A stretch of DNA of 63,310 nucleotides, counting the filler, from Asterionella formosa (taxonomy: Eukaryota): assembly GCA_002256025.1 (NCBI GenBank). It is 14 parts of 14 records of this genome, joined end to end, with 100 filler letters (N's around TTAATTAATTAA, not from the genome) between each part and the next. Parts side by side here need not be neighbours in the genome. Positions count along the whole stretch, not along the records: positions 19,250 to 20,296 come from NKIB01004713.1; 13 more parts are not named here. One strand, given 5' to 3'. Below, piece by piece: positions 26-60,179 of the stretch. The notes beneath the pieces are model-generated. The model did no database searches, was not told the origin of the DNA, and saw only the letters and a list, made by a program, of their open reading frames with translations. How positions within the stretch are numbered: position 1 is the stretch's first letter; each line of letters begins with the position of its first letter. A program made the position numbers and the translations under genes.

Positions 26-730
26 ATGAATAGGCTATCAACAGGCCTTGTGACCTCGCCTACACCTACTCGTGCAGGTACACGTCAGCAATCATCCGCA
101 GCACGCACGCTTAATTTGGATGACGACACGAATGAAAACCTCCAAGAGCACGAACCTAACGAGGAAGCACATTCAACGAGCCTAGCTTCCGACCCACTGG
201 AACCCAAGAGCTACAAGCAGGCACTACTAAGTAACGAAAAAGACGAATGGACCAAGGCAATCAAAGCTGAAATTGAAAACTTCTACTCCCGCAAAGTGTG
301 GAAGCTACATCCTCGTAAGAATCTAAATGGACGAAAGCCACTTGGAGCAAAATGGGTATTTAAAAAGAAGAATGAGCACGACAACACTACGCGCTACAAG
401 GGCCGCATCGTGGTAAAAGGCTACGTGCAGATACCAGGTGTCGACTTCACAGACTCATTCGCACCTGTTGTTACGGATACAGGCCTACGTATTTTGTTTG
501 CGCTCACCCTACACAGAAAAGATTTTGTTTGTGAAATTGTGGACATCGAAGCGGCATTCCTCGAAGCCGACCTCGACGAAGAAATCTACATAGAATGGCC
601 AGATGGAATCGCTGACTTCCACTACGAAAATGAAACGACTATGACTGACAACTGCATCCGACTGGACAAGGCAATGTACGGCACGGTACAAGCTGCACGG
701 CAATGGTTCAAGAAACTCCGAGACTGCCTA
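26..730 (+). mobile_element. Ty1/copia LTR retrotransposon reverse transcriptase (RVT_2) fragment, truncated at ~730
   Basis: ORF 26..775 carries Copia RT motifs: EPKSYKQAL, KWVFKKK, RYKGRIVVKGYVQIPGVDFTDSFAPV, DIEAAFL and LDKAMYGTVQAARQW. Homology stops after ...KKLRDCL, before the YVDD motif. Confidence 0.93.
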
Positions 731-910
731 CCGTATACTTCATTGTCCTGGACCCCCCAATGTACACTGCCGTGACTGAATTTGACTGATTTTACTTAAG
801 GGGGGCCCAGGACAATGAAGAGATTTCCCTTATAATGGACCTAAGTAAATTTCTTTAGTTCTACAGGATAGCGCACATTTTTCTAAGATGTATTAATATG
901 ACAATTATTT
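731..910. repeat. Dispersed repeat / DNA-transposon end with a 21-bp internal inverted repeat, interrupting the Copia RT
   Basis: 738-758 CTTCATTGTCCTGGACCCCCC and 800-820 GGGGGGCCCAGGACAATGAAG are reverse complements at 20/21 positions. Segment 772-910 has a diverged copy at ~45995-46142. Confidence 0.6.
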
Positions 911-1047
911 CCGTCTTGTGAAAAATGAGAGAGTTCTTCACCTCGCAAGAAAAACGCGACTTCATGTTGTTATCGGCGATCTCAATTTTCGTTGTCATTA
1001 TTAGTGTTATTACTTTACTTCTTTTACGATTGTATTTTCCATGTCGT

Positions 1048-1866: not shown

Positions 1867-2704
1867 TACCAGTAAAAAAATGCATTGACCCACTGGGAAA
1901 AATTTCGAACTGCATTGACCCACTGACGGTATAAAAAACACGTTTTGTTTTGAAAAATCATTCATTCTCTATTTCTTAAGCTCCAGAATGTATCTTGTGC
2001 ATATACCGGATGGAGTCATACTCTTAGTTCTCAATCGATTGGACGTCGATCTTTCGTTAATTTAGGTCAAAAGTGGTGATCGGAAAAAAAGTGAAAAGCA
2101 CGGATTATCCCAAGTTTGGAGTTCTCATCTTACATTGTGTACAACGATAAATATAAATTTCTCGCATTTTGTGTCTTATCCATAACCTTGTCAATAATAA
2201 TTCAGTAAATAAAAATTGATGAAACCCGGTGCAGCCGTGTAATACCAGTATCTATGTAGGCAGACCATTATAATTGGTACGGAGTACCTTGTACCTGGTC
2301 TATAAATATGTACCAATGGCTGTGCAGAAAACTCATACTGTACATCTATTGTACCTGGTACCAGGTACCGGTATCATGTATGGAGCATCATGCATTTTAT
2401 GTCTTTTCGCTTTGAACCAAACAGGATAATCCGTGTTCACCAACGAATATAAAATTACTTTCAGGTATGGTAAAAATTTCATATACTGCATTGACCCACT
2501 GAGACTGAATTTTACGTCTAGATGTATATAAATATCTTCTGAACCATAAGATATGTTCAATTTAACTAGGAAAAGGATGCTAATGTACCGACGCCTTATG
2601 CCATCAATACTTCCGAACAGATTTTAGAGAGGGGATCTAAGTGTTAGTCGAATTAATCAAACGAATGGGATAAAACAGTGGGTCAATGCAGTTTTTTACT
2701 GGTA
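1867..2704. mobile_element. Non-autonomous TA-flanked DNA transposon (MITE, Tc1/mariner-like), ~0.84 kb
   Basis: Left end TACCAGTAAAAAAATGCATTGACCCACTG (1867-1895) and right end CAGTGGGTCAATGCAGTTTTTTACTGGTA (2676-2704) are inverted at 28/29 positions, including the flanking TA. Internal copies of ACTGCATTGACCCACTGA lie at ~1909-1926 and ~2485-2502. Confidence 0.8.
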
Positions 2705-7855: not shown

Positions 7856-8054
7856 TTACCACCTGGTACCAGGTACCAAGATATTCGACGCGAAGATGAT
7901 ATGAATTGCTACTTCACATGATATTGGTATTAATATTAAGCGGCGGCGCAGCATGAAAAAATGGAATTTTTATCGCGCACAGTTCACAAAGATGGTTCCC
8001 TTTTTCTAAATCACACCATTATCACCATCGTTGCCACCAAATCAAGGAAAAATA

Positions 8055-13010: not shown

Positions 13011-13820
13011 CAAGTAGCCGCCAAGAAGGGTACTGTTGAAGCAATTCACAACCTATCTATCGTCTCGCCATTCTCTTAGTACCTACTGCTCACAAGTAAA
13101 GCATAAATGTCATTTTTAGGTTGCTATTGTCCATCATTTAAAATGTATTTTTTGTTTTTCCAATATTCTCATCAAATCTTGCCAAAGGTCCGATATTGCC
13201 CATCATAACAATATATTTTATATCTTTCATGTGTTTTCTTTTCGGCAATCCAATTTACGCCAATGAACCCTCGGTTCTCCACTCCTGGGATTGCTGAAAT
13301 TGGCAAGGGGTCTACTTGGTGAGGAACCCATTTTTATATACTCTCAAGTAATATTCACCTTGTTTTTGTTCCTCACCTGAAAAGTGACTCCAGCAATTTG
13401 CCTCCTGTCATCATGCCGATCATCGTCCATCATGACCAGTCTGAAGCGAAATAAGTTCATTGATGACGCCAGCAGTGGCGATTTGTTGTCAAACAGATGC
13501 GGTTGGTTGTTGGATTGCTTGTTGTCTTCTCATGGGATTCATATACTTGCATTGTCCATATTTCTTCGGACGAACAATGATTTCGGTCTATCTGATGTTG
13601 GAAGCAAGTTTTTCCTCCGGTCATGCATGTGATGATGCTTAACAAATATTCTAGTAATATAGCCTACATATGTTTGGGCTTGCAACAGGGACCTTCCAAC
13701 TTTGGATAGCTAGATCCAATTGGATGCTGCTTGTTATGCTAGTTAGAGAGGATTGGTGAGTACAACAGTGAAACACTGAATGTGGAATGAAGATACTATT
13801 TGCCGAATTTCCGATTCCAG
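13011..13820. repeat. Dispersed repeat, homologous in reverse orientation to 23857-24880
   Basis: Example matches: 13011 CAAGTAGCCGCCAAGAAGGG vs the reverse complement of 24861-24880, and ~13725-13790 vs the reverse complement of ~23880-23950. Confidence 0.8.
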
Positions 13821-14331
13821 TGTTGTTTATTGTTCCATACTGTCATTTTGGTTCTGTTGTATCTATCTACACAAGAAGGGCCAATGTATGTTTCAATGCC
13901 TACTCTTTGAAGATGTATTGTGCCATTGTTGGTCTTATTTGTTGATTGGTATAGTCATTGACCATGATGTCAATATTGCCACCATGCAATGCTTTTCTGG
14001 CTGTCTTTCTAAAATCAGCAATTTTCATGCGGAAAAATTCGATGTGCCCCACATTGCCCCTAAAAAAAAATTACTTAAAGCCTATAAAATACTTAGAAGT
14101 ACCCGAGTGGCAAGACGATAGCTGGAGCGGGAATTGCCGAGATGATGTGTCTCCCACCACCGATCAACAAAGTAAAAAACCAGCAAGATGAAAGAAAATA
14201 TTATTTGTACCTACGTGACTACCGGGGAGGTAGCAACATCACATCACAACGGTACCTGGTACCTGATGGTTTATTTGTCCAGACAAAAGACTATTATTAC
14301 CGGTGGTTGTCCAACAATGTTCGATCTTACC

Positions 14332-15537
14332 ATGACGGAACAAAACTCCAGCAGCAACGACGAGGAAGCCGCGAAGAATGAAGAAGAGGGCCACAAGATG
14401 TTTGTGTCACGAATTCATTCTAGTTTTGATGAGGCAACTGTACTCCGATTGTTTCAAGACAAGCTTGGCGCAGAGTCCATTGTGGAAGTGGCGCTGGTGT
14501 ATGCAAAGCCCGAAGACAGCGGCGAGGCAGCTGCAGCAGCGAACGGCGATATCGGCAAAGGAAATGAAATACTAGAGCATCGTGGGTTTGCATTTGTTAC
14601 GCTGACTTCGAATGAAGCAAAAGAAAAGGCGCTGGAGCTAGGAACCATCCGAGGCGGCGCTAAGCCGAACTCTTCGAAAAAGCACACCATGTACCTTCGT
14701 CCAATTGTCAGAGAGGACGAACGAGAGTCAGAGAGTCTCGACAAGGGAATTTGCTTTCTCTGGACCAAATTGCGGTGTCCGTACGGCGACACTTGCAAGT
14801 TTAACCACGAAGGCGAAGGGGGTTGCTTGGTGAAAAGTAGCTCGCACGAGAAGAAGAAAAAGTGTTTTGATTTTAAAAAAGGGAAGTGCAAACTCGGAGA
14901 CAAGTGCCTATTTTCTCACGATTTTACTGTCGAAGTGAAGAAAGACGCAGTCACTGATACGCGCCCTCAGAATGAAAAGGACTGCATCAATTGGAAGACC
15001 AAGGGAAAGTGTCGAAAGGGTGACAAGTGTCCCTACCGTCACGAAGAAGCAGTTCGAGAAGCAGTATTGACGAAGAAGGGAATGAAGAGGCAAAGAGGAG
15101 ACGAAGAGGAGGAAAAGAGGAGGCAACCGTTATCGGTCCGCGTCTTTGGATTATGTTATGAGACCACAGAGCAAGATGTGAGGGCTTACTTTCAGGAATG
15201 TGGCACAATCGTTGAGATTACATTCCCAAAGTTTGAGGACAGTGGTAGAAGTAAAGGGTACTGTGGGGTACTCTTCCAATCACCAAAGGCCGTCACCAAG
15301 GCGGTAGAGAAGGATGGATCGGAGTTGCATGGAAGATGGTTGTCGGTGCAGCCTGGTAAGATGTATTTGAGAAAATGGGAAGCTCACGAAGATGCTCGAA
15401 AGGATGGTATCACCAACAACGAGCATGGCGATGATGAGACTAATGAGCTCTCGAATCAGGAAAGAGAGTCTCAAAGGGTCGGAGAGTTCGGCCAAAAAGT
15501 CAAAATCCGAAAGAAGCACGGGTTTGCAACAGAATAA
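14332..15537 (+). CDS. RNA-binding protein with RRM - 3x CCCH zinc finger - RRM architecture (alternative start 14317)
   Basis: RRM1 is MFVSRI...RGFAFVT. The CCCH fingers are CFLWTKLRCPYGDTCKFNH, CFDFKKGKCKLGDKCLFSH and CINWKTKGKCRKGDKCPYRH. RRM2 is VRVFGLCYETTEQDV...SGRSKGYCGVLF. The ORF has no intron. Confidence 0.92.
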   Translation: MTEQNSSSNDEEAAKNEEEGHKMFVSRIHSSFDEATVLRLFQDKLGAESIVEVALVYAKPEDSGEAAAAANGDIGKGNEILEHRGFAFVTLTSNEAKEKALELGTIRGGAKPNSSKKHTMYLRPIVREDERESESLDKGICFLWTKLRCPYGDTCKFNHEGEGGCLVKSSSHEKKKKCFDFKKGKCKLGDKCLFSHDFTVEVKKDAVTDTRPQNEKDCINWKTKGKCRKGDKCPYRHEEAVREAVLTKKGMKRQRGDEEEEKRRQPLSVRVFGLCYETTEQDVRAYFQECGTIVEITFPKFEDSGRSKGYCGVLFQSPKAVTKAVEKDGSELHGRWLSVQPGKMYLRKWEAHEDARKDGITNNEHGDDETNELSNQERESQRVGEFGQKVKIRKKHGFATE

Positions 15538-17993: not shown

Positions 17994-18473
17994 GTTTAGT
18001 CTNNNNNNNNNNNNNNNNNNNNNNNNNNNNNNNNNNNNNNNNNNNNTTAATTAATTAANNNNNNNNNNNNNNNNNNNNNNNNNNNNNNNNNNNNNNNNNN
18101 NNATTTAGACCGTTCAATTGCCGCAAGGGTTTTGGTAGCAAATTGTTTAAGCCCCTTTTTTGGTTGGGAGCTCTTCATGTGTACCGGTACATCATATGAC
18201 AATAACAATATATCATATATATATACAGAGTACCAGTAGCAGGTAGTAAGTGATATACTGGGGGTAGTCGGAGTAGTAAACTAGCAACAGAACACCATAT
18301 GTACAGGACTGTTGCTACTGCAGTGGGACAGTAAATCATCATAGTTTTAGGATCATATGATCGTAAAACTAAAAACCAATAGAACACCATATGTAGGACC
18401 AGGCTGACGAGTTACTACCGGTACCAGGTAGTACGTCTACATCTTTTGTCAGCACCTTTAAGTAGCACTTACG

Positions 18474-19016
18474 GTTATGGTGGTACTATGTTTTTCCCTA
18501 TTATTTTCTGTCGCAGCTCTGTAAAGGCTGCGATGTACAGTTATGGTGGTACTATGTTTTTCCCTATTATTTTCTGTCGCAGCTCCGTAGAGAGGCTGTG
18601 AAAGTCAAAGCGCTGCCCCCCCCCCCACCCATTACTGTGCGTTGCAACGGCCCGCAACAGGGTGGCTGTGGTTATGGAGCAGGGGGTAGAACGCCACAAC
18701 ATGACGAAGTCCCAAGGATCATGAATGGGAAGAAAACTTTGCTGCATTCTGGTGGTACCATTGGACTTGGGAAACAGCGAGGAAGGTTGTATCCCGCCGT
18801 ATCAAACGGTTTCGAATAAGAGGAGTTGGAACGAAGAGATGTGACAAGAACTGCCCTGACACTTCTGTCCGACTTGGTCGATGGATGTCTCCCGCCTATT
18901 TGTGACTTCCTACGCAACACAACAAAACTTGCCAAAACGACGAATCAAACGGGTTTCGAATATGAGGAGTGGTTGGAACGAAGAGACTTGTCATAAACAT
19001 GACACTTCTGTCCGAC
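18474..19016 (+). repeat. Two local tandem duplications (18474-18530/18540-18598 and ~18801-18873/~18944-19016)
   Basis: GTTATGGTGGTACTATGTTTTTCCCTATTATTTTCTGTCGCAGCTC occurs twice with a 66-nt period. ATCAAACGG..TTCGAATA..GAG..TTGGAACGAAGAGA...GACACTTCTGTCCGACT also occurs twice. Confidence 0.8.
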
Positions 19017-19249
19017 TCAGTTGATGGCGCAAAAGACCCGACACCAGAGTCCGGTTATTTGCAAATGGCTGTACTTGATTAAAAACAAATAACCATTTTG
19101 TTAGTAACTATTTATGAGTAAATACAAATTCTTACTTCCATCTTTCCCCNNNNNNNNNNNNNNNNNNNNNNNNNNNNNNNNNNNNNNNNNNNNTTAATTA
19201 ATTAANNNNNNNNNNNNNNNNNNNNNNNNNNNNNNNNNNNNNNNNNNNN

Positions 19250-20296
19250 AATGGTCCGTTGCCTCAAACTTGCTTGGCGTGTGCGTGCACACACTGTCGA
19301 CTTGTTTTCAATGGTATGTTGTTCTTGTATTCACTGTTGAACTTGTCCGCATCTTTGTTACCATCAATAGAGCGACGCAGACGAAGTGGGTCTCTTCATT
19401 GTTGTTTGCTCCTGGAAAAGTCGGTGTCCGTGTCATCCTCATCAATAGAGAGACAAGTTCTTTCGTTGGAAAAATTGGTACCGTATCATCATTCGCTCGT
19501 TCGAGCCACTGTCCGTTGCCTCAAACCTGATTAGCGTGTGAGTACCGGTATGTGCACTGTCGACTTTAGTACATTACAGGCGGAGTGACTTCGCAACTAA
19601 ATTGCGTGATATAATAATATACCCTGTAGCACGATGCAGAATACCGGTACAGTTGGTTCCCAATCATCTCATCATGATTGATAAGATGACACTGTGATAT
19701 CATGATAAGGTTACATCGATGTTTACATCACCAAAGTATGATACGTAATATTGAATTAAGTACATCACATAGCTATGATACATTGATCATAAAACTATGA
19801 TGATTTTATCAAATGTATATGATATAATTTTGATCAAAATATGATCATGTAAAAATAGTACAATGACAATAAAATACGATAAAATATCTACACAAGTGTT
19901 GTTAAGACATCATAGAAAATAAATCAAGCAATCATAAAGTATGTTAATTAATATATGTGTTTGTTGTTTAATGTATACAGTTGAAGTCAACACTTAATAT
20001 GATAGTATTTTACAGTGGATAGGATCTAAGTATACGGATGCGTTGATACCGGTATGTACATCACTATAATATGATTTGTGATACGGATTGATGAATATCA
20101 CATACCGGTATCCTCAACAACCAGCCATCACGTTCATTGTCGTGTCGTCTTTCCTTGTTTTAGCTATACATGTGCCAGCATGTGTATTGTGTAAACACTA
20201 CGCTGGCGGAACATGCATATTACACTGTGCTCTGTTCAACAATTACTACACTCGGTTACCATCACACCAGTTCCACCTCCACAGGCGCCGCAATAA
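19250..20296. repeat. ~1-kb dispersed repeat, homologous in reverse orientation to ~58660-59700
   Basis: Spurious ORFs pair up between the copies (19259..19534 vs 59395..59751; 20088..20348 vs 58657..58887) and nucleotide similarity is collinear. An internal unit beginning CCGTTGCCTCAAAC recurs at ~19256 and ~19513. Confidence 0.88.
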
Positions 20297-21542
20297 NNNN
20301 NNNNNNNNNNNNNNNNNNNNNNNNNNNNNNNNNNNNNNNNTTAATTAATTAANNNNNNNNNNNNNNNNNNNNNNNNNNNNNNNNNNNNNNNNNNNNGGGC
20401 AAGAATTCGTGGTTCTGTTCTCAGCGTATCTGCATGTTTAGACATGATGAAAAGAACAAGGACCGCGATTCATCGTGGAAGGTGCCCAATTTGTAATAAC
20501 AAACTGATGGAAGAAGTAAGACGGCGCTCAATTTGCTTCGTTGTTTGACATCATACATACTAGGTATATGTCATACCAGTGGTATAGTCCACATGTCTAC
20601 ACGCGCCACATAATCATAAATGAATACCGGTACATGAATTTCCTGTTCCATCAAAAATGCATTGCTCTGCGTCTTGTTCATCATTTTAGCATACCGTAGT
20701 CGTAGGCGGAATACGGTCGACCTCGTTTGTTATCTCTCCTACGCAGCTACAGTCTTGGTCCGTTTTAAATTACCAAGAAAACAAAAGCAAGATCTAATAT
20801 TCAAAATATGGTGCATACATCTATAAAATAAGGAGTTGGTAAATTTGTCAAGCTTTGCCAACGAGACTGAAGGTTCGCCCCTTCAGAAAGTTGGTTCATT
20901 TTAAGTATTTAAAGGGAACATGACGCAAAATCGAATAGAAAGAATACCGGTAGACAACTATAGTAGGATTAGCACTTGATGAGCAATTAGCGAGAATTTG
21001 ACAGAGGGATGGTCAAAAACACAGAACTAATAAGCGATGGAAGAATCCGTGGTACACAACACATCGCACAACCTATAGCACTCTAGAAGTGGAAAGATCG
21101 TGTCGGTGAAAATTACTAACTGTTTTACATCAGTAGCGTGCCGTGACCAAGGTTGATCCATGTAAATTTTCTCAATGAAAAGACGGGGGCATGGGGCTTT
21201 ACTTCTTCAAGCAATGCGTTCATCACATTATTTTGCATTCCACCTTGAGCTCATGAAACCCTTGGCTCTACATCAGTTCTGTTGGAGCAAAAGTCTTAAA
21301 TGGGAGTTTTGTATACATTCAATGATGCAATTTCATTTAGTACAAAACATCCTTGCCTCCCAAGACAACTAAAACAGCAACAGCAGCCATGATGTAAAGC
21401 AAGACGTTGGTTTGGGGTTTGTCAGCATCCAAGCCAACCTGANNNNNNNNNNNNNNNNNNNNNNNNNNNNNNNNNNNNNNNNNNNNTTAATTAATTAANN
21501 NNNNNNNNNNNNNNNNNNNNNNNNNNNNNNNNNNNNNNNNNN

Positions 21543-21630
21543 TGAGGGCGGGCTTACCCGAAAAAATACGTTTTAAATGAGTTACAGCCATAGACATAAT
21601 TAAAAATTCTATTTCTGTAATTAAACTATT
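21543..21630. repeat. Short diverged dispersed repeat, inverted copy at ~34671-34753
   Basis: CGAAAAAATrCGTTTT..ATGAGTTACA..TAGACAT...TTTCTGTAATTAAAyTATT is shared between the two sites. Confidence 0.55.
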
Positions 21631-22104
21631 AAGATATAAATAAAGTAATCGAAATCAATTTAACATACATAAATTCATTGGGTACATGTTTACATCAAGC
21701 AATACTCATGCATTGATGTTGCTGGTATGATGATTATCATCATCATCATTTTTGTCAAAATGGATACTGACATGCAAAACATGATGACTGTCCCTCCCTG
21801 ATGGTCATATCATCCTTGGCTTGATGGTAATCAATAATGGTCGCAGTTGTGATCATCTTCACTGTTGCGGATCAACAGTGAAAGGTCGATCAGTGTTTCA
21901 CTTCAATTTATGAGGTACAGTCCTGGACGAGGTCCTCCAAAAATTCGAGGACACAATGAAGGTGACAAAAAACTGTGATATCTACCCACAAGGTCAAAGG
22001 TGTAGAGTGAGTATCTTTCCAAGAGGATTGCACATGACGTGTTTGTGGCAGTACAGAATGTTGATTGTACTACTGCTGTAGTATTTGAACTGCTAAAAGG
22101 GAGT

Positions 22105-22500
22105 TAATACTTGTCCTTTTGTCATCCAAAAATTTCAAAGAGGATTGGATCAATGGTTCTTGGAACAACCGGTACATTGGGAAGGTCCCATTCCCCAACC
22201 GGAGGATGTCATAGGTGAAGCCACCTTTTCCAAATCAACCGGATGATATAGGTTGGGACCAAGCTATGAGGGTCAAATTAGCAAATATTGGGGCAAAGCA
22301 AATGCGCTATATTGTAGGGCAAGGGCAATTCAGAATGCAACGGAATTAGACACTCAACGGACAGTGAAATTTATAAAATTTTTGCGGAATTTTGGAATTG
22401 TTTGTTGGGCATCTCCAAACTCCCTGTTATATGGAACCTCCGACGAGGAGAAGGATCAGAAGTTGACACAGGAGGTTGATCAGGTTAAAATTTGGTTATG
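22105..22500 (+). pseudogene. Frameshifted remnant of the C-terminal region of a non-LTR retrotransposon (LINE) ORF
   Basis: Read across frameshifts it gives TCPFVIQKFQRGLDQW...QPDDIGWDQAMR/GQISKYWGKA...FIKFLRNFGIVCWASPNSLLYG. This resembles the Q-x-x-IGW-x5-G-x-x-S-x-x-W ... W-x-x-RN-x-x-L-x-G pattern I recall from diatom LINE C-termini. Confidence 0.5.
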
Positions 22501-22688
22501 GGGAAAAAGACGAAAATGTGAGTCCTCTACTAATCACTGTTCTTCTGCCATGCAGCGTCCGTAGACACTGCTGGTACAACTTTCCCGTNNNNNNNNNNNN
22601 NNNNNNNNNNNNNNNNNNNNNNNNNNNNNNNNTTAATTAATTAANNNNNNNNNNNNNNNNNNNNNNNNNNNNNNNNNNNNNNNNNNNN

Positions 22689-23722
22689 GCGGCTCGTCTC
22701 CGGGATGACTTCATGGGTCCCATCTCATGGTTCCTTGGTATCTACTTTGCCTGGCACCCCAACGCCTCCACTGGTCACCTCAGTGTTCATTTATCCCAGG
22801 AGGCTTACCTTCGCAATCTCCTTGACCGGTTTGATATGGTGGATTGTCGCCATACACACCCCTACCCCTTATCGCTCTGGCCTGGTCTATGACCGCATTG
22901 TGCCTGATGGTGCTGAACTTTCTCCCAAAGCTCGCGCGGCCATTATTACACAATACCAGTCACTCATTGGGGCTCTCAATTGGCTGCCTGTCAGCACACA
23001 TCCTGATGCCTCTGTTGCCCTCACTCTCCTGGCTCAGCACAACTCCTATGCCACCCCCGCTCACCTGCTTTTAGGTGCCATGTATGTGTTACGATACCTG
23101 GCTGGCTATGCCAATCATGGCATCGCCTTTACCTCGCAATTTGCTTCCTCATACCTCTCCACCACCATTGGTTGTTGGCCCAAGGACACTCCCACTCTCA
23201 CCACTTACACCGATGCCAACTGGGGCCCGCAAGATGCTTCCAAACCCAACCCCACCGACATCATCTCTCTTGCCGAGTGCTGCTCCCTTCTTGGTTCCAT
23301 CAGTACACGTACAGGTGACCCCATCGCCTGGCATGTCATTCGTGAACCTTGCATGAGCCGCAGTACCTGCGAATCTGAAATCAAATCTGTGGATGAGGGC
23401 ACCAAGGTTACCCAATTCATCCACCATATCCTTCGTGACCTGCACATGCCTGATGTCACTCTCCCCCACCCCTCTTTGGAATGACAACAGAGGTGCTGTG
23501 GACTGGTCCCACAACTGTGCTAACAAAAAGATGCAGCATATTAATATCCGCAACATGGCTGTGTGCGACGCTCACCGGTTTTCCGAAATCTTTGTCACCC
23601 ACCTCCCAGGGGATACCAATGTTGCTGATCTGTTCACCAAAGAACATAAAGATGATGCCCATTTTCTCCGCCTCCGCAATATTATTGTCCTGTCTCATGG
23701 GAATTTTCTCACTTGAGGGGGG
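22689..23722 (+). mobile_element. Degenerate Ty1/copia 3' end: RT C-terminus, RNase H and polypurine tract
   Basis: Motifs in order: FMGPISWFLGI..HLSQEAYL (frameshift), TPYRSG, YQSLIGALNWL, YTDANWGPQD, SRSTCESEIKSVDE (frameshift), LWNDNRGAVDWS, HINIR, NVADLFTKE. The stop at 23716 overlaps the purine tract GAGGGGGG (23715-23722). Confidence 0.9.
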
Positions 23723-23856
23723 TTTTGGTACCATNNNNNNNNNNNNNNNNNNNNNNNNNNNNNNNNNNNNNNNNNNNNTTAATTAATTAANNNNNNNNNN
23801 NNNNNNNNNNNNNNNNNNNNNNNNNNNNNNNNNNCAAAACAAACCACGGAAGCAAT

Positions 23857-24880
23857 CAAATCGGAAAGTCGATAAATACGATCTACAATCCACATTCAGT
23901 ATTTCACTGTTGTACTCACCGATCCGCTTCAACTAGCATAACAAGCAGCAGACGATGGGATAAAAGAAAGACGAACATTGCCTACTATTGCAAGCCCGAA
24001 TAGAGCAAAGGCAGGCAAGATAGAGTGAGAACTATATTTGTGAGGACGAAATCGGGCATACGGTACGTAAAATCAATGAATATGTGAACGATATAATTCA
24101 ACATTTCAGGTCTCGTAAAAATAATACCGAGTCTACAGTGATAATATTATAACGTGTTCAAAGTAAGCGTTAAAGCATGCATGGTTGTTTTTAGTACCAC
24201 GTACGTATGTAGACTAGATGACTGCCGGTTCCGGTAGAATATCCGTTAAGCATCATTACATACATGACCGGAGCAAAAACTTGCCACCAACATCAGATGT
24301 ATCGATATCATCGTGCGTCCGACGAAATATGGACAATGCGACTACATGAATACCTCGAGAAGACAAGCAATCCAACAATCAACCGCATCCGTTAGGCAAA
24401 GAATCGCTCCTGGCGTCATCGCGGAACTGATTTCGCTTCAAACCGGTCATGATGGACGACGATTGGCATGGTGAAAGGTGAATTGCCGGAGTCCACTTTT
24501 CAGGAGACGAACAAAAACGAGGTGAATTCTAGATATAAATTATTAAAATCTGAATAGTATATAAAATGGTTTCCTTAAGTAGACCCCTTGCCGATTTCGG
24601 CAATCCCAGGGCTGGAAAACCGAGGGGCAATTGGTGTTTGTTGTCTTGCCAAGATGCGAACATATGAAATATACAAAATATATTTTAATGATGGGCAATA
24701 TCGGACCTTTGGCAATTTTCGAGGTGAAGATAGGAAATATACAAAATATATTTTATATGATGGGCAATAGTAGGCTAAAATTGACATTTATGCTAAATTT
24801 GTGGGCAGTAGGTAAGCGAATGACGCGACGATAGCTAGAGCGGGAATTGCCTCAACAATACCCTTCTCGGCGGCTACTTG
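23857..24880. repeat. Dispersed repeat (second copy of 13011-13820, inverted, with an extra internal segment)
   Basis: Collinear reverse-complement similarity to 13011-13820. Confidence 0.8.
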
Positions 24881-24980
24881 NNNNNNNNNNNNNNNNNNNN
24901 NNNNNNNNNNNNNNNNNNNNNNNNTTAATTAATTAANNNNNNNNNNNNNNNNNNNNNNNNNNNNNNNNNNNNNNNNNNNN

Positions 24981-25252
24981 ATATTTGCCATGCTGCCAGC
25001 TCGTCTGACACATATATGTTGATTGTATGATAGGGTATATAAACATTGAGCGATGGAGAACGTTTATGTATATATTTATTGAATTCGAAAAGGAATCTAT
25101 GTATGTATGCGCAAATTTCCAGTGATTCAAATATTTCAATTGGAATCACGTCATTCAAAATTAACTCATAAAAATTCTTAGTTCCAGGGAATTTCGGCAA
25201 CCTTAAGCAATATTTTAATTTTTGCCTAGGGGTTCAAATGCAGGAACCTTAA
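24981..25252 (-). mobile_element. Terminus of a young TTAA-targeting DNA transposon (Kolobok-like end)
   Basis: 25025-25252 is the reverse complement of 63083-63310, with about 2 mismatches in 228 nt. Identity ends exactly at TTAA|GGTTCCTGCATTTGAACCCC. Confidence 0.7.
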
Positions 25253-25373
25253 ACCCAAGTTGTTTTTTCCTGTAGGCCTCTGGCATGTGTCTACTGGATC
25301 ATTATAATGCTGGCACGGTATTGATCTGAAAATACTAGTGGAAGCACCGTGTTACAACAGTATTTGCCATTAG

Positions 25374-25418
25374 AAAAATTAAACCCCCGGGGTTTAATTT
25401 TTTGGTTTAATTAAACCA
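25374..25418. repeat. Two abutting perfect palindromes
   Basis: AAAAATTAAACCCC-C-GGGGTTTAATTTTT (25374-25402) is followed immediately by TGGTTTAATTAAACCA (25403-25418). Confidence 0.8.
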
Positions 25419-25707
25419 TAACGGTACGCACGATCATCGTAGTAGGAATATACACTGTACGAGTACATAAAACTAGCTATTACACTCTACTACTGGTACC
25501 ACCTGGTACCTGGTACCGGTCGTTCACACAAATTAAACCCCATCCTCATTCATGTACCGGTACCAGGTACCAGGGTACCAGGTACTCGGTATTTCGGTAT
25601 GCAGCAGCGGTAAGGAGAGGAAGGTGTGACTGATGGGACACCAACAGCAGGTGAAGGAGGGAAGTATGAGAAGCGTGGAAAAATGGGTAGAATGTAGGAG
25701 ATCCTTG

Positions 25708-25840
25708 TACATTTTTGGGGAGAAATTCTCCCCTTTTTTCTGCGCTGACGTTTATTCCCCTCTAGCTTTTAACACGTATGTTTTCTGCGGCCCCGTCAGC
25801 AGCGGCTTTTTGGGGAGACTTTTCTCCCCAAAAACATGTA
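25708..25840. mobile_element. ~130-bp TA-flanked MITE-like foldback
   Basis: TACATTTTTGGGGAGAAATTCTCCCC and GGGGAGACTTTTCTCCCCAAAAACATGTA are imperfect inverted repeats. There is an inner GCTGACG/CGTCAGC pair. Confidence 0.6.
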
Positions 25841-26126
25841 GAAACAGCGTTCAATTTTGTACCATCGTAGGACTCGGATTGACAGTACATGCATGATATC
25901 TACTGCTAATAGCTGTACCGGTAGTACTAGGGGTTCCGAGGACTCAGTCAATTATGAACATCAACTGAGAACAACAACAATCAACAATATACCTATGGAA
26001 GCGACCCACTGCCACATCAAAACATCNNNNNNNNNNNNNNNNNNNNNNNNNNNNNNNNNNNNNNNNNNNNTTAATTAATTAANNNNNNNNNNNNNNNNNN
26101 NNNNNNNNNNNNNNNNNNNNNNNNNN

Positions 26127-26345
26127 TAGCCACAGCATTAGTAGAGGAAACTCCAACCGCCTAGGAAGGCGGCATAAGCTGCTTGTAGGGGGGAAACCCA
26201 CTATTGCTTGCAAACCAGGCAAGACCGTGCGAGACGGTCAGGAGTGTGGTATTCGAACCCAAGAATAACTTCTAAAAAATCGCGGAAATAAAACCAAACA
26301 AGCTCAGATCAAAGGCAACGTGCTAAACCACTAAGCCATTCCCTT
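26127..26345 (-). mobile_element. tRNA-headed SINE-like element / structured RNA (truncated by contig end)
   Basis: The minus strand has an A-box TGGCTTAGTGG (26338-26328) and a B-box-like GGTTCGAATACC (26259-26248). A run of GC-rich hairpins follows (26223-26239, 26157-26172). A complete cloverleaf cannot be built. Confidence 0.55.
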
Positions 26346-26367
26346 AAAGTTTGATTCTTATATCCTA

Positions 26368-44850: not shown

Positions 44851-45241
44851 ATGACTTCCTTTCCGTCCTCGCAACATCTGCCTTTGGTGCTCTTGTCACT
44901 TGCATACCTGCTAACGTCGACGGCTGCACTCAATGACTCGTCTACGCCCTGGCAAACATTGCAACAAACTACACAACGTCATCTGGAAGTGGGAGACTTT
45001 GATAGCATCAACGGCCTCATTCAAGATATTGCTGTCACTTTACCAGACACCGTCCTCACTCAGTCACTCTTAGGAATTACACTCACTCTTGATCTGAAAG
45101 AATTGAAATGCTTCGGTTTCAATGTTGGCGACATTGAAGTGAATTATATTTCGTCGGTCACCACTTCTGCGGACTTCGATCTCAAAGTCATCCAACTTGA
45201 CACTACGTGTACTTTCAACTACAATTATGACTATTCATTCC
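44851..45241 (+). CDS. 5' fragment of a secreted/membrane protein, possibly with BPI/TULIP-like beta-rich domain; truncated by contig end
   Basis: Signal peptide (HLPLVLLSLAYLLTSTAA), an RHL processing-like motif, then amphipathic strands ITLTLDLKELKCFGFNVGDI...LDTTCTFNYNYDY. The frame is open into the gap. Confidence 0.65.

Positions 45242-45711: not shown

Positions 45712-45750
<39 letters not shown>
45712..45750. repeat. (TGA)13 microsatellite
   Basis: Perfect trinucleotide run. Confidence 0.95.
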
Positions 45751-46713
45751 GCGACGTTCCTACATTACATATTGGCGACTTGGATTTTTTGGATAAAAGG
45801 CGGCGGACGAGAGGCGGAGGATATCAACAATTATATTTTTTTTTACCTACCGGTAGGTACCAGGTAACAGGTACCAGTATCAAACATAAAACGGAAAACA
45901 TAAATTTTTTTATGTATGTGTAGTATGTATGACAGACAAGGTTGATTGGCCATGACAGCACCACCATGTTGATGTACGCATATACCACATACTTGTGACT
46001 GAATTTGACTAATTTTACTTAAGGAAAATGAAGAGAATCCTTCATATGTACCGGTAATTGACCTGCCTAAATTTTATCGGTTCTACAGGATGGAGCGGAT
46101 TTTTCTAAAATATGTATTAAGCAATACCACGACAACTATTTCTAGCAAGGAAGAATAATGATTCAACATGACACAAGATGTTACTCCAATCTACGTATTA
46201 CATACTCCTTATAATATAATGTTCAGTTGTGATGGCCTTCTTGTTGTCAATCATTGCTGCTGCAGTTGTGTACGCATGATGGCTCCAATATCAACGTCAA
46301 AGATTCTGACAGTCTTGTCGTCACTTGCTGAAACCACCACAGCATTCTCACTATCCACAAAGCACACGACCATATCATTAATCATANNNNNNNNNNNNNN
46401 NNNNNNNNNNNNNNNNNNNNNNNNNNNNNNTTAATTAATTAANNNNNNNNNNNNNNNNNNNNNNNNNNNNNNNNNNNNNNNNNNNNTCATTTGTCAATAA
46501 GTAAACATCTCCAGTCATTTGTCAATAAATGACGAGATGTTTTTGGGTCTTGGTTTCTAATCACTACTAAGAATATTGATTCTCGATTCGTTGGATTCCA
46601 TATATTTTATCACTCCTTTTCAGGCCGAAGTGCTGAAAACAACCAATAATGAATGGTTCTATATCAAGTATGATTTGAATATTCACATGCTACTGGTACC
46701 TGCTGAAGTATCA

Positions 46714-52394: not shown

Positions 52395-53381
52395 TTCCTT
52401 TGCGTCGTCATTCTTGCTTTATGACATGTGTATTTTAGTGCCGATGCAAGAAAAACAGTGCCGTCATGGTGGGCGATCTGTTCAAATGCATCTTCACAAA
52501 TCATCGTGATCAGTAGTCTAATAATACCGGTAATAATAATGAGAATATTATTTCCGGTACACTTTTGCACTTTTGTTCATAAAATAAATAAAAAACCTAT
52601 AAAATGTAAAGTACAAACAAACCATCTACATGCGAAATCTTGATGCTTTTTTAAATATCGCATCTAACGCTTGTCTTATACACAGGAAATTTCAGAGAAC
52701 GATATTCGTCATTCTACTGATTTTGTCGACATTGGTGGGAAGCCACTTATCAAAAAAGTGTGAGGGAAGAAAGTTCAGTTTCAAATGGTCTCACTGATCA
52801 ATGGACTGATGATTTACTTGGTTATCATAAGGAAATCTACACTGGACTTTCACAAAAGAATCGATCTGAATATGGAAGGAATCCTAGTGGAATTGCTCCT
52901 TCCACAACAAATATCATCTACCCCCACTCATACTTCTCATTTACCGACGTAAGTAAAGAGAGGATATGCATCAATATGTTGAACCACTTCAACCAAATGT
53001 TCCTGAGAAGAATATTGATTAAAATGAACGCATTAATCAATGGGACATTGATGACGACGTTGATTTTGAATGGATCTAATAGAATCCAATGCATACTTAG
53101 TAGTTACATAATAAATATAGTTAATGTGAGACTTCTACAATGCACAAACCATATCATAGATGTTAGGAAAACATGGATGCTGCTCTATACTACTAGTAGT
53201 GGCGCCTGTACTGTATGTAGCGGTATGCTTCCATTTTTACTACTATGGAGGTGGAGTGATCATTTCATGACTCTGTATTGTTCAGCACAGCATGATCGGA
53301 GTGCTGGACAAATTATTATTAATAATTCATTTTCACTCTATCCTGTTCATATCCTGACTTTGTCATCATTTGAAATTTGCA

Positions 53382-56300
53382 ATGTCTTTGCGGACATTGC
53401 AATGGTGTTATCTGTGTAACTACAAATTTCGGAAGAACAAATCCCCATCTCAGGAGTCTCACAACCGAAATTGTAGCAACCGTTTTTTATGCATATGGTC
53501 ACAGTCGACATTGCATGCAAGAACATCGAGTTATAATGAAACTATGTATTGCGGTAGTGCATCGAATCATTCAAGCAAAGAAGTTAATGGCAGTGTAACT
53601 GCTGCAGCATTTAGGGAGAGTATACAACAAGAAGAGATTATGTGTCCTATCCTTGAATCAAGTGGCCACAATCATCCATTTCAAGACGAAAGCGACGATT
53701 CAGTTTATAACAATATTCAGTCACAACAAGACGAACAATTGAGACTAAAAACTCTCCAAGGATTGAATTCAGAGACCATGCAATATTCAGATTTCCAAGA
53801 TCACACCGGCTTTCTCCCTGAAGATGCAATGGAAATGCCCCTTCCTTCTCAATTTCAACTTCCAAGTGAACATTTCCTAAACATGCATCCAATCGAATTA
53901 GAACTCATGTTAATCCTTAACGAGAAGTATCTTCCACCAGCTTACTTTGATCATCTAATGAAATGGCTGTTCAAGGCCAAAGCAATGAAATATTTGATGG
54001 AAGGTATCAAGCTCCATCCTACCAGACTTTGGAAAAACGCATGGATATTAAATTTCCACCAACATTAGCTGGTGGTCAACTGTTGACCAAAAAATACACA
54101 TTGATAACAATTCAAACATGATCATCCCACTCACAATCCATTATTTCGAACCAGTACAGCTCATGGCAGGATTGTTATGTGATTCCCATGATATCATGCA
54201 ACATTTTGTTTGTCACCCACAAATGAAACTTACAACTTCTGGAGAACGCATGTATGACGAAGTAATTTCCGCGACTTGGTTTGAAAATGCATTTAACAAT
54301 TCTCCTGCATCAGAAAATGGAGTGTTGAAGACAGGGTGTTTATTTGTTGCCCTAGCAGTTTTCAGTGATGGTTCACCTATTGATAAACAAATGCTACATT
54401 CTGAGCATCCGTTTTTGTTGACAATGTTAAACTTAATGTTAGAAGGAGGGATTGTAGAAAGTTGATGGATGGCAATTTGTATCTCTTTTGCCAGACACTG
54501 AAGCAGGTCAGTGATCTGGAGTAACAAATGAATAATAAGTTATCTGGTGACGACTTGTCCTTATGTAGACTCAAATTATATCACTCTGTTACAGGATTTC
54601 TATTGTCGCCTTTCGAAGAGCGATCCAAACAAGTCATACGATATTTGGGTTCATGGTCTTGGTATGACAAAAGTTTATTTCCAAGTTGGAATGATCATTG
54701 GTGATACAGAAGAACACAATAAAATTTGTGGCTTCAGGGGTGGTAATGGATTATATCGACGATATGTTTGTCGTGATTGCCTGGTTTCAACTGAGGATGC
54801 TGATAATTCTGATATTGGATGTGAACGTCGTAAAGTGTCAGATGTTAAAATGTTTTAAACAAGTTTCTTGACAAAAATGCATATCCCGATGGAAAATTGC
54901 CATGTATCCCACCTGAGTATTGTGTCTCCCAATCTAATGGCAAATACGCAACAGCAAACGAGTGGTGCCATGTTATATCGCATAATCCTATCATGCCTGC
55001 ACTAATAAATCATTTTTTTGGTGGTGACTTAGAAGGATTATTTGGTGCAACTCCATTTGAGGTTCTTCATCAATTACTACTTGGAATATTTAAGTACATT
55101 TTGGAATCATTGTACAATTATCGGACTATCCCTGAAGAATGGACATGTTCTTTTAAAGAAAGAAAATCTCCAGATATTCCAGAAAACATCTCCAATCATA
55201 TACGTAACACTGAAACAACTGACTCTGCTTTTCTTGATCAAGAGCAACCGAAGAAACGGGCAAAGACCGAAAAGGACACACGCACCAGTTATCAAAAATA
55301 TCTACACTGGCAAAAATCAAGACCCAACACTTGTAACAGCACCAGAAATGCATGTATTTTCGAAACTATACTTCGAACAAAGTGCTAGATATATCAATAG
55401 TCATTTGGAAAGCAAGGCAAAGCGGTCGTGATATTCCGAAATTGTCATACAGATCTGGGATGACATCTTTGTCGAAAATGTCAGGGCAAGGCAAGAAATT
55501 CCCGAATTATGTCTGTTAACTATTTTTTCAATGGGTGGAATGATGGGTTCAGAGAACATGCACCTAGAAAAGGATTTCACATTGCTGTTATGGTTATGTA
55601 TATTTATCAATGACACTTTATTCATACCGCAGTATACATCAACATGTATTGATATTTTAGAGGAAAGGGTTAAGAGATAGATTTTGTCAGTTACTAAGAT
55701 TATGATTGGTCCCCAACAGGAAATGATATCTCAAATCGGCTTACGAACGGCAAAATTTCATGGAATGAAACATTACCTCATCTAATTAGGAAGTTCGGAT
55801 CTCCTCTTAATTTCTTTGGTGGATGTTTGGAGTCTTTTTTGAAAGACAAATTGAAACGATCAATTCAGTAAGCGTGTCAATGGACAGAAAATTACATCGA
55901 TTAAAGCATGACATTATAACAAGGTCATATGAAACAAGACAGTTTTCCTTGGCACGAAAAATTGTTTTTGCAAGTGATACATTACAAACAGAAAACAAAC
56001 AAAAAGAAGATGAGTAAAGTAGTACATATGAATGTAACTGAGGGTATTTCAACAGAAATTGATTTCGAGGGAATGATTCAGGATGCAAGGATTTTGCCTA
56101 GTACGTCGCCTGATAATTTGGGAATATCGCCTACCAAGATGCATTCACCATCCCTTCCTGTTAAAGTTCAATTCTCTGAAAAAACCAACTGAAATGAAAA
56201 TTCATAAATGTATGTTTTTTGCAAGAGCGAGGAGACACCTTAATTGAGCGTTGTTGAATTTCATAACATACTTTTGGCAGCATTTGTTGTTCCTGCTTTG

Positions 56301-56445
56301 AAACCACAGGAATCAAGGAAATCTCTGAAAACGCAAGAAGTTTTGGAACAGATACGGAAATATAATTTTTATGTTGCCATGCCTCCACGTCATTTATGGA
56401 AAAAATCAATCGGTTGGGACCAAAAACTAACAAGCGAACGTTGAT
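53382..56445 (+). pseudogene. Decayed Plavaka-type (CACTA/EnSpm-related) transposase gene, multiple frameshifts and stops
   Basis: N-terminal CYLC...H...C finger, then ALAVFSDGSPIDKQMLHSEHPFLLTMLNL, FQVGMIIGDTEEHNKICG...CRDC, GLFGATPFEVLHQLLLGIFKY and GLRTAKFHGMKHY/IRKFGSPLNFFGGCLESFLK. The motifs are spread over ORFs 53370, 54118, 54547, 54897 and later fragments. Confidence 0.75.
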
Positions 56446-56661
56446 AAATACAGAAGAAAAATATAAATAAAAGTGATAATATAGTTTCACATACTAGTTA
56501 AGTTATTAGAAGGTTTTCACAAACTAAAATGTCCTAAGGAATGATGAAATTGGATGATCCCAATGGTCCATGCATTATTTGTTCTTTTTCACTCCCAAAG
56601 AACCTAAGATGGTCATTCTCGTTTCGTCCGAAATTTTTCTTCTCCACTTTTCAACTGCAGT

Positions 56662-58588
56662 TCAATATGAGTCTGTAAACTTTTTCAATTTGATCCCAGA
56701 AAAAGAGCTATCATCAGTTTCAAAATATTTTTTCAAATTTTTGTCAATTTTGATGCATCCAGAAATTTGGTCAAGAGGTGCATGATTATACCACTTGAAG
56801 GGAGCAACTTTTTCTTTTATTTGTTGGATCATGGATTTCACGTTGATAACATCATCCTTCTTGAAAGATGAATTGCAAGGAAATCGTCCAAATACTTCGT
56901 TCAACATTTTTAAATCTAAATATGAGCTCAAAATTTTGTCGATACAAAATTGAAGAACAGTTATTTCCAACTGAAACATATCCTCACGAATGTTGGTCGT
57001 TGTCACTTGAGGCCAAACTGTTCCAAGACGAAAGTATGTTGACTTTGTTATTGGGTCAGATGTAACAGATAACAAATCGTCTGTTCGATCAGTTGCTACC
57101 ACCTGACGTTTTAAAACTTTCCATGGTGCCAGTATAGAAAGATTCCGATAAACCAATTCTTCAGGTGTATGGTATTCTTGTGGGAGATATCCTGTATCGG
57201 TGCATAACAATTCCAATTGTTTCGTGCATCCAGGGATAATGAAGCACTTACGGGCAAGGTGAAATACTTGATCATAATGTTCATCCAAACTTGCATCTTT
57301 TCCTGGATCACGGACTTGACATAATCCATCATTTATAGCAAAAAGATAATGCACAAAATGGTTGTTTTCCTCCTCATCTGATCTTTTACAATAAAAAATT
57401 AGCAAATAGCAAGTTACTGTCTGTCATGATGAAGTAGAGAACAATCATCTTGGTATATATGCGGTTTGTCATTACCCTTTTCTGGGTTCTCATCCAGATC
57501 AAATATTGTAAAACCTTTTCATCAGTTGGATGAAGTTCATGAATTATATCATGGATCATGGAGCAAGGTAATTGTTTCAAGGTCCCAATATGCAAGATCT
57601 TTAAAATCTGAAGATGATTTTTTGATACCTTTGACTCCATAAAATACAGGGGCGTAACTGCATATTTCTTGTGGGGTACGTGTGTACAAATACTTCCACA
57701 ATTTTAGTTGTCCATGCGTTTTCGGCAAACTCAAGGAAATTCAGTTTGCTTTGGCATAATAACTCTACACATTTCACATGCTGACTTGTCACAAAAGTAG
57801 CTGCCTTCGGGATTGTTCTCGATGATTTTACAGAGAAATTCTTTTTCGTCCATGAATGATTTGGAAAAATATTCAATTTTTTTCTTCAAACTTCGTTCCC
57901 GACTCACTGCATCCACTGCCTTAGCCAGCATGGTCATAACATCTCTGTCTGCATTGATCTTCTTGAATTCGAGGTCTTGATCTATCTCGCTCAGACTTTT
58001 TCTTGAAATATAATTTCTTTAAGAAATGCAATAATGTCTCTGCTTTCATGATGTTTATCTTGATGTGCGTTCTGGACGACTAGTGAGACATATTTCTTGG
58101 TTTTGCAACTTTTCAACCATTTCTACTTCAGAAGTGATGTCTCCCACATTTCTGCCGGTATTTTCATTCATCGCATGAATTTTTTCATCAAATGAATGAG
58201 AATCACTGAGTTCTTCTTCATTATCAGCGATTTCAGGAGAATGAGGAGCAAAATATGACACTGGATGGAACTGTGACTCTGTAGGAATAGAGTCTTCATC
58301 CGATACACGAAGATCAACTGTTTGGTTTTCCTCGCTCTTCGAAAGCAATCTTTCCTTCTTTTCAATCTCTGCCACTATTGTATCGGAATACTTCATTTTT
58401 CTTTCTGGAGTATTATGAATCTGTTCAAATTCATTTGTTATTTGAGTGTATTCAAAGGAATCTTCGATTGATTTCATAAGTTTCTTCATCTTCTTTTCCG
58501 AAAACATAAAGTCGTGTAGTGTATACAATGGAAGTAAGTCACGTTTCTTGTTTGACTCGTCCTTTGCATGAAATCCATGAAATGCCAT
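56662..58588 (-). pseudogene. Fragmented second gene converging on the Plavaka transposase; C-terminal part resembles a degenerate Ulp1/C48 cysteine protease
   Basis: A chain of same-strand ORFs (58055..58588, 57731..57937, 57549..57734, 56662..57405) with charged coiled-coil-like text and a CDKSACEMC Cys cluster. It then gives NHFVHYLF...VRDP...WPQ...DMFQLEITVLQF, in the H..D..Q..(C) order of C48 proteases, but with no Cys at the expected site. Confidence 0.45.
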
Positions 58589-58659
58589 TTAGAAAGCAAG
58601 TTGTCAAAGGGCCAGAAGACTATGATGTAAAACAGTGGAAGGGAAACGCAGAGCTTTTA

Positions 58660-59820
58660 GCGCCACTTGTGGAGGTGCAGCTGGTGTGATGGTAACCGAG
58701 TGTAGTAATTGTTGAACAGAGCACAGCAGTGTAATATGCATGTTCCACCAGCGTAGTGTTTACACAATACACATGCCGGTATCAATACAGCTATAACAGG
58801 GAAAAACGACATGACAATGAACATGATGGCTGGTTGTTGAGGATACCGGTATGTGATATGCATCAATCTAGCTATATCACAAATCATATTATAGTGCTGT
58901 ACATATCAACGCATCCGTATACTTAGATCCTATCCACCGTATAATACTATCAAATTAACCGTTGGCTTTTACTGTATACATTAAAAGTCGAATTTATATA
59001 TTAAGTAACATAATTATGATTTATTTATTTATTTTCGATAACACTTGCGTACATATTTTATCGAATTTTATTGTCATTGTATTATTTTAACATGATCATA
59101 TTTTGATCAAAATTATATAATAAACATTTTAAGAAATCATCATAGTTCTATGATCAATGCATCATAGCTATGTGATATACTTTATTCAATATTACGTATC
59201 ATACTTTGGTGATGTATGAATCGATGTAACCCTATCGTGATATCACATTATCATCTTATCAATCATGATGAGATTGGGAACTGTAGTATTCTGCATCACA
59301 CTACGGAGTATGATATTATAACACGCACTTTAGTAGCTAAGTCACTCCTGTATTGTACACAAGTCGACAGTGCACGAACACACGAAAACACATATTAATC
59401 AGGTTTGAGGCAATGGACAGTGGTTCCAACGAGCGAATGATGATACCACGGGTACCAATTTTTCCAGCGGCAAATCGCAATGATGAAGGACACTTGTCCC
59501 TCTATTGATGAGGATGACACGGACACCGACTTTTCCAGAAGCAAACAACAATGAAGAGACGCTCTTGTCTCTCTATTGATGGTAACAAAGGCAGATGCGG
59601 AAAAAATCAACAGTGAATACAAGAACAACATACCAATGAAAACAAGTCGGCAGTGTGTGTACGCACACGCCAAGCAGGTTTGAGGCAACGGACAGTTCCA
59701 ACAAGCAAATGACGATACAGATATCAAATATTTCCTACGAGCAAACAACAATGAAGAGAGCCACTTGCTTTCGCTCTCTTGATGGTATCAAAGATGCAGA
59801 CAAGTTCAATAGTAAATACA
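58660..59820. repeat. Dispersed repeat (inverted homolog of 19250-20296), with internal tandem units
   Basis: Collinear reverse-complement similarity. CAGGTTTGAGGCAA.GGACAGT and AGCAAACAACAATGAAGAGA each occur twice. Confidence 0.85.
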
Positions 59821-60179
59821 AGTAAAGCATGCCAAATGCAGAAACGAGCGACATGAAAAAGAAATTGTAATCAGAATCATTCTATTACTATAGCTATGTG
59901 GACAGTAGTCTGTTACGCACATTTTCGTATCTCCTTCTATGCTGAATCTCAATAGTAGATGTTGTATCATGTGAGAATTGAAAATGTCAACGAGAACAAG
60001 TAGAATGTGGTCGACGAAACAGATAAACGGATTTATAATGTGCGCTGTGTGCAGAACAGTTACGAGTTCGAATGATTTCTTCTATGAAAGCGGTAGTGAT
60101 GATGAATAAGTTTAATAAATAAAGTTAATCTAAGACTTTAAACATTATTCTAAGACTTATATGCAAATAAGGCATGTAC

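Follow-up and report, generated by a model that had tools for sequence, protein, structure and literature searches.

TA-flanked CCGG words in the diatom Asterionella formosa as probable excision footprints of resident pogo-type transposons

Footprints of the transposon Sleeping Beauty read TACAGTA or TACTGTA. For Tc1/mariner elements at large, the footprint is described as a duplicated TA around two to four terminal element bases, arising from end-joined 3' overhangs (PMC6943129), and the word TACATGTA is cited as the Tc1 footprint in PMC3520976. Within the pogo family, footprints were reported for Passer and Emigrant (PMC9976928; PMC1636448), those of Passer comprising 0–4 bases (PMC9976928). 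A study in rice, which likewise compared filled and empty sites, found that most excisions leave deletions or filler DNA, with perfect footprints in 8 of 94 cases (PMC4423477). The products described below are, in contrast, highly stereotyped, and judging from rice such stereotypy is not the rule (PMC4423477). The kind of event is known from Tc1/mariner footprints; its density in the genome studied here is unusual.

Palindromes of the same or an analogous TA-flanked build are very abundant in the non-coding DNA of oomycetes, a group related to diatoms. Those found upstream of oomycete genes include TACATGTA (motif-1/AM-20) and GTACCGGTA (motif-9/streme-5), the latter being listed as a candidate regulatory motif (PMC10031896). 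A study of Phytophthora considered TACATGTA as a footprint and discarded the idea because of the abundance of the word (PMC3520976), which is bound by the Phytophthora MYB protein PsMyb37 (PMC11134190). The oomycete palindromes are read as transcription-factor sites, unlike the footprint reading proposed here for A. formosa.

Here, we analysed a stretch of 63,310 nucleotides (the window; 14 parts joined end to end, filler included) from an A. formosa assembly (GCA_002256025.1) of 68.4 Mb in 15,436 contigs. The window is eukaryotic, has a GC content of 39%, and contains the word TACCGGTA 41 times, compared to 0.7 copies expected under an order-2 model, as well as 16 copies of TACCAGGTA and 14 of TACCTGGTA. 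Genome-wide, TACCGGTA occurs 28,528 times vs. 1,718 occurrences of the reversed word used as control. None of the 41 window copies lies inside a long gene frame, where 9.3 would be expected by length; as such we counted the 11 frames of the window taken as host genes, which contain 14% of all TA. We consider it probable, at roughly 85%, that TACCGGTA is the excision footprint of resident pogo transposons (Tc1/mariner superfamily) with CCG...CGG ends. As in known Tc1/mariner footprints, TA stands on both sides of two to four terminal element bases; unlike in these, the core would be CCGG from CCG ends, by a two-base CG anneal, and CC(A/T)GG from CCA ends, and in contrast to footprints seen in assays the word is fixed in the genome, where it recurs tens of thousands of times. 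The literature searched, which covers few subscription journals, gave no description of these words as footprints in a diatom. What the present analysis adds is the polarisation of the events, the matching of elements to scars, and a second, more frequent scar class consisting of a 2-base duplication plus G, C or GC.

Several other features of the window were annotated. A protein with an NYN domain and weak OST-HTH repeats is encoded at 41288-42967 (+), and other host genes encode Patched/sterol-sensing (8010-10961), CCCH-RRM (14176-15537) and HMG box (60779-61834) proteins. Coding fragments resembling LTR retrotransposons lie at 22645-23571, 26368-27171 and 13011-13816, the second with a match to SH3_retrovirus.

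Gains and losses were polarised in a host repeat of which the window holds two copies:

19250..20296, plus strand: copy A, a 1,047-base contig from the interior of the host repeat
52678..60089, minus strand: copy B, a truncated host-repeat copy

Contigs of 1,046–1,047 bases occur in runs at 18003-27272 and 44097-46486, with gaps of constant make-up between them (44 N, then a spacer of 12 bases, then 44 N). They stand in for collapsed repeats, so that the position of copy A among them is a guess of the assembly rather than a firm placement. The truncated end of copy B adjoins a decayed frame (60210-60596, minus strand) without a Pfam match, which presumably resembles a Harbinger-type transposase. 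In searches with copies A and B, the first look gave 715 and 657 candidates, respectively; 40 per search were scored and 30 fetched, and after removal of 3 duplicate rows, 59 host-repeat copies were aligned, a sample biased to copies resembling A or B.

Over 145,321 aligned bases of host repeat, we counted 2,683 substitutions, 340 insertions and 127 deletions, all distinct. TA became TACCGGTA at 9 of 244 TA sites and the unit was lost at none; eight of these gains come from a scripted list and the ninth is the unit at 19642, which BLAST had misplaced. Deletions involving CCGG were absent from the 127 distinct deletions of this alignment. An earlier note on this DNA, whose quoted strings were all found where it placed them, had claimed that units are gained or lost at TA after the repeat copies diverged, of which the gain was borne out and the loss was not. 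Among distinct six-base insertions in the alignment, 8 of 32 are of the TA-CCGG-TA type, a pattern that appeared in 0 of 20,000 simulated random six-base insertions and in 27 of 20,000 simulated tandem duplications (0.14%). The sites that carry the argument are the following:

20047..20054, unstranded: TA-CCGG-TA scar private to copy A (unit in 1 of 59 copies, TA in 56, TT in 2)
58898..58911, minus strand: empty TA site, the counterpart of 20047
19642..19649, unstranded: TA-CCGG-TA scar private to copy A (1 of 59; plain TACA in the other 28 A-type copies)
59281..59294, minus strand: TA-C-TA allele, 3 bases longer, of a second scar-like class (23 of 30 B-type copies)
19543..19550, unstranded: TA-CCGG-TA scar inherited in part of the A subfamily (20 of 59 copies)
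20103..20110, unstranded: ancestral TACCGGTA of the repeat family, with its counterpart at 58844-58851 (39 of 59 exact)
19479..19485, unstranded: TACCGTA produced by a 4-base deletion, no scar (short in 9 of 59 copies, all A-type)

The pair at 20047, proposed as one filled and one empty copy, is clean. At 19642, the proposed gain is indeed private to copy A; its partner allele TACTA is, however, not the empty state but belongs to the different insertion class. The pair proposed near 19476 fell away, the long TACCCGTGGTA form being the majority and the short one a deletion shared within the A type. "Scarred versus empty" also describes these pairs better than the original "filled versus empty", as the filled state is a whole transposon. 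A gain that the earlier note did not list is that at 19543, where all 20 carriers fall into one 29-copy clade and none into the other, of 30 copies; support for the 29-copy clade is 100/100 in a tree built without the tested columns, a bootstrap that is not settled. On this tree, the 19543 unit needs six changes, of which the starred branches force only one, and four of the carrier copies have a second, nested unit (TA-CCCGG-TA) at the same place.

These sites bear directly on the proposal that TACCGGTA is ancestral or selected, e.g., as a protein-binding site, with short alleles arising by deletion between the two TA or with units arising by slippage. Its avoidance of gene frames (0/41) would suit such a role, and so would the oomycete parallels, in which the same word lies upstream of co-expressed genes as a candidate binding site (PMC10031896; PMC3520976) and a MYB protein binds TACATGTA (PMC11134190). 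What speaks against it is that the gains are private and fall on terminal branches within a transposon family: at 20047 and 19642 the majority of copies lack the unit, so that both sites contradict an ancestral unit shortened by deletion. Where the unit is ancestral, at 20103, the non-exact copies differ by point changes and none of the 59 has returned to TA, in line with the lack of CCGG deletions noted above, and slippage is disfavoured by the rarity of the pattern in the duplication simulations. We regard this proposal as very improbable; a later regulatory use of TACCGGTA would be compatible with the footprint reading, without bearing on the origin of the word.

An assembly or library artefact, e.g., linker or restriction-site remnants, might be suspected from the fragmented assembly and the fixed spacer word inside the gaps. 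TACCGGTA-type units are, however, inherited by related copies on different contigs, avoid gene frames, have class-specific flanks and decay by CpG transitions (8.7% vs. 2.7% for other C>T changes), which makes such an origin barely credible. The same CpG decay of scars explains part of the CCAG/CTGG variants.

Candidate makers of the footprint were sought with a DDE_1 profile search of the genome, which gave 93 matches. Among them are four full-length, TA-flanked elements with CCG...CGG termini, belonging to family 1 (L081 and L086; 82 exact ends in the genome) and family 2 (L122 and L135; 306 exact ends), i.e., at least 388 exact CCG ends in total, and a third family with CAG ends (L062). The CCG-ended elements encode, between terminal inverted repeats, a DDE_1 transposase with a DD35D triad; in L081 this is an open frame of 421 residues (Pfam DDE_1, E 1e-21) in which 35 residues separate the third aspartate from the second, and elements of this type also show a weak Brinker/HTH match. 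Ten copies are 99–100% identical over 1.95 kb while their flanks differ, which points to recent pogo activity. Comparison with five paralogous empty sites shows that L081 duplicated a single TA, and TA duplication was likewise deduced for L135 from empty paralogous sites. A search for the DDE_3 family gave no match, yet the L081 frame passes the DDE_3 cut-off on direct scan, and a search for Transposase_1 was silent together with its PF01359 control, so that neither result implies absence.

In the description of Passer-type DD35D pogo elements, DDE_1, the DD35D spacing, a length of 400-odd residues, short inverted repeats and TA duplication recur (PMC9976928); unlike Passer, L081 has an additional frame, and the likeness to pogo is one of domains and ends rather than of a tree. 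This second frame (L081:781-1218) comprises 145 residues on the opposite strand, is also found in L068 and has no Pfam match. The window includes one family-2 end and a decayed relative of it:

729..1047, plus strand: left end of a family-2 CCG pogo, cut by a gap and containing site 831
45995..46120, plus strand: decayed relative of the family-2 CCG pogo end; TACCGGTA at 46049-46056 is part of its compound gain

The copy with site 46049 stands alone against eight relatives in having about 9 extra bases that include CCGGTA. The proposed contrast between 46049 and plain TATA at 831 holds insofar as a private gain including CCGGTA is present; the gain is compound, and the two copies are only about 70% alike.

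A possible further tie between element and scar is one TA site in another repeat, which occurs empty, filled by a CCG element (L135) and scarred (L176, CACCGGTA). Of 35 aligned copies, 34 lack the unit: 32 read TA, one AA and one, in L068, CA. As the scar in L176 is one base off, with C instead of T as its first base, and as L176 and L135 are not sister copies, the site would show a shared target rather than descent. It is the one such case among 31 complete elements tested. L122/L190 was considered as a second case and not counted, its scar lying on the neighbouring TA.

The proposed course of events would start with the insertion of a CCG element at TA and the duplication of this TA, as observed at the empty sites above. 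On excision, the non-transferred strand would be cut about 3 bases inside the element, as known Tc1/mariner chemistry suggests, leaving a CCG-3' overhang on each flank. The overhangs could then anneal by their CG pair, be filled and ligated, yielding TA-CCGG-TA with a net gain of 6 bases, while other annealing registers would give TA-CGG-TA and TA-CC(C/G)GG-TA; the minor-register words CGG and CC(C/G)GG are seen in L043, L007/8/12/14 and L154. Scars would subsequently be inherited and copied together with their host repeats while decaying at CpG, as the alignment documents. Overhangs of CCA...TGG elements offer no two-base pairing, and a one-base overlap with an A-A mismatch would give TA-CC(A/T)GG-TA, whereas CAG ends would give CAG/CTG as for Sleeping Beauty; one TA-CTG-TA gain occurs in the host alignment. 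A single rule, 3-base overhangs plus end joining, fits both scar types.

The gain at TA, the identity of its core with the ends of resident TA-flanked elements, the TA duplication and the match of flanks by class are direct observations, and it is from them that we infer the excision step, the overhang length and the family assignment. About 27,000 excess words face at least 388 exact CCG ends, and this high ratio of words to elements requires long turnover and passive copying within repeats. At odds with the proposed overlap rule, and unexplained by it, is that CCAGGG (n = 50) far exceeds the predicted no-overlap product CCATGG (n = 2).

CCA-ended elements are of special interest as the possible source of the longer word. 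The window, which was not selected for CCA or CCG elements, includes one of them:

1867..2704 with its TA, unstranded: a non-autonomous, TA-flanked element of 834 bases with CCA...TGG ends (element proper 1869-2702; 28 exact ends genome-wide)

A chain of scars lies inside this element at 2352-2373, and a second CCA family (32 exact ends) was found tail-to-tail with the first. In the two CCA families, the TA is preceded by GG at 15 of 27 and at 19 of 28 ends, respectively, whereas the CCG families have GG there at 1 of 34 and 0 of 11 ends (Fisher p 3e-6, first CCA family vs. CCG family 1); the commonest outer flank letters of CCA elements are ACCTGG. Flanks of CC(A/T)GG units in the window end in GG in 45 of 59 cases, against a background of 7.2%; the CCA-element profile gives them +158 bits, the CCG profile −59. 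The 61 solo (non-GG) CCGG flanks behave in the opposite way, receiving −176 bits from the CCA profile and +6 from the CCG profile, a fit that is small in absolute size over 61 flanks but better than that of random TA in the window (−21 bits, p 0.0006) and not equalled in any of 2,000 random draws in the loci. The match of target preference is thus strong between CC(A/T)GG and CCA ends and modest between CCGG and CCG ends.

CCA elements mostly sit at GG-TA, a flank created by scars as well as by their own ends; scars would therefore draw in new CCA insertions, by which chains could grow. In fact, 21 of 30 CC(A/T)GG units in the window stand in tandem chains, where neighbouring units mix A and T (TA 41, AA 29, TT 23, AT 18, i.e., 59 mixed pairs of 111). 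Pure slippage fits these mixed neighbours poorly and was rejected as the sole origin of chains, to which it may contribute. Likewise, CpG decay of CC(C/G)GG was rejected as the main source of CC(A/T)GG, given 307 CC(A/T)GG vs. 24 CC(C/G)GG units and a different flank. The 145 kb host alignment contains no CC(A/T)GG gain, and the few polarised cases lie within 13 CCA-element copies. Decayed frames adjoin CCA ends in L198 and L173; Pfam gave no match for them, nor did BLAST against the L081 CCG transposase, the far terminal repeat of the element was not found, and an embedding search (DDE_1, 0.95) is the sole basis for their label as DDE_1. CCA elements lie tail-to-tail with one shared TA in L159/L143, L175, L179 and L180, those of L180 being split by TA-CCCTGG-TA or TA-CCAGGG-TA units.

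It could be argued that CCA-ended, or extinct, families also make most of the TACCGGTA copies and that the CCG pogo elements are bystanders, which would leave the footprint reading itself in place. Of the 41 window copies, 14 stand in chains with CC(A/T)GG units, GG flanks are found at 17 of 78 CCGG units and hence above the background, and CC plus GG is the 2+2 product of CCA...TGG ends, so that CCA elements could leave CCGG if one base were trimmed per overhang. At none of the nine polarised gains, however, is the left flank GG or the right flank CC, the solo flanks disagree strongly with the CCA profile, and the three-state site is filled by a CCG element. We therefore consider this assignment unlikely and retain CCG elements as the probable makers of TACCGGTA.

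Apart from CCGG, the host alignment contains a second scar-like class, in which any dinucleotide is duplicated around G, C or GC and which accounts for most of the small insertions that are not duplications. Of the 37 three-base insertions that include a 2-base duplication, 33 have C or G as their core, and four-base insertions are of the form XY-GC-XY in 38 of 98 cases vs. 3 for XY-CG-XY (0.9% each at random). The class is about ninefold commoner than TACCGG gains in this alignment, and the TACTA allele at 59281-59294 fits it. Two features of copy B belong here:

58864..58878, minus strand: private TA-GC-TA insertion in copy B, of the second scar-like class, from the alignment
54052..54465, plus strand: fragment of a Plavaka-like transposase frame (PF18759, E 2.6e-5)

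The PF18759 match lies just below the cut-off (24 vs. 26.3 bits), and this weak match makes the host repeat a candidate Plavaka-type (CMCT) DNA transposon. Two complete copies are bounded by terminal inverted repeats that begin with CGTCTG and have duplicated 2 bases of their target (AC in L004, TC in L215). In the description of fungal Plavaka elements, duplications are of 2–3 bases, with which the host repeat agrees, and ends are TGT..ACA or CATCA..TGATG, in contrast to its CGT..ACG (PMC12730594). An LTR or Helitron identity was rejected, the repeat being longer and its ends consisting of inverted repeats with a 2-base duplication. Plavaka-like elements with C...G ends, including the host repeat, are candidate makers of the second class, and a hairpin step with inversion of the terminal base might explain why the core is GC and not CG. 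A TA-flanked element of 520 bases with CTCCCTC ends (34333-34858), which we take to be Stowaway-like, could be the source of TA-C-TA or TA-G-TA scars. Among the other loci, L250 (G000:C13149) has the same element end and flank a second time, in inverted orientation, at a distance of 8.5 kb, and L249 differs from other copies by an internal inversion of 240 bases; either aberrant transposition or assembly error could account for them.

With both classes in view, CCGGTA could also be written after TA without any transposon, by a self-copying micro-unit or by insertions, templated or not, made as breaks are repaired. The great surplus of words over resident elements, the excess of insertions over deletions (340 vs. 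127) and the unexplained CCAGGG type would agree with such a process. Against it, the inserted letters are those of the ends of resident TA-flanked elements, the two word classes follow the flank preferences of two element classes, and the private gain sites of the 59-copy alignment showed no evident local template; we judge it quite improbable compared to excision.

More broadly, it is possible, although we put it forward only tentatively, that in this genome much of the small-insertion input stems from transposon traffic instead of polymerase error, via at least three signatures, and that the oomycete promoter palindromes have the same origin. The signatures would be CCGG from CCG pogo elements, CC(A/T)GG from self-targeting CCA elements, and dinucleotide duplication plus G, C or GC from hairpin excision of Plavaka-like elements. 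If this is true, some TA-flanked palindromes of oomycetes were adopted by transcription factors later. The abundance-based dismissal in Phytophthora would be reopened, since a word of the same build with 28,528 copies enters here as an insertion at TA, and motif-discovery studies in such genomes should control for footprint words. Moreover, with pogo copies that are open and nearly identical, a direct assay is feasible.

For A. formosa itself, an over-represented word would turn into a mutational process that can be dated and for which candidate enzymes are named. Scars would record transposition where no element survives, implying an activity far above copy number, and a target preference for an element's own scar would offer a simple route to minisatellite-like chains.
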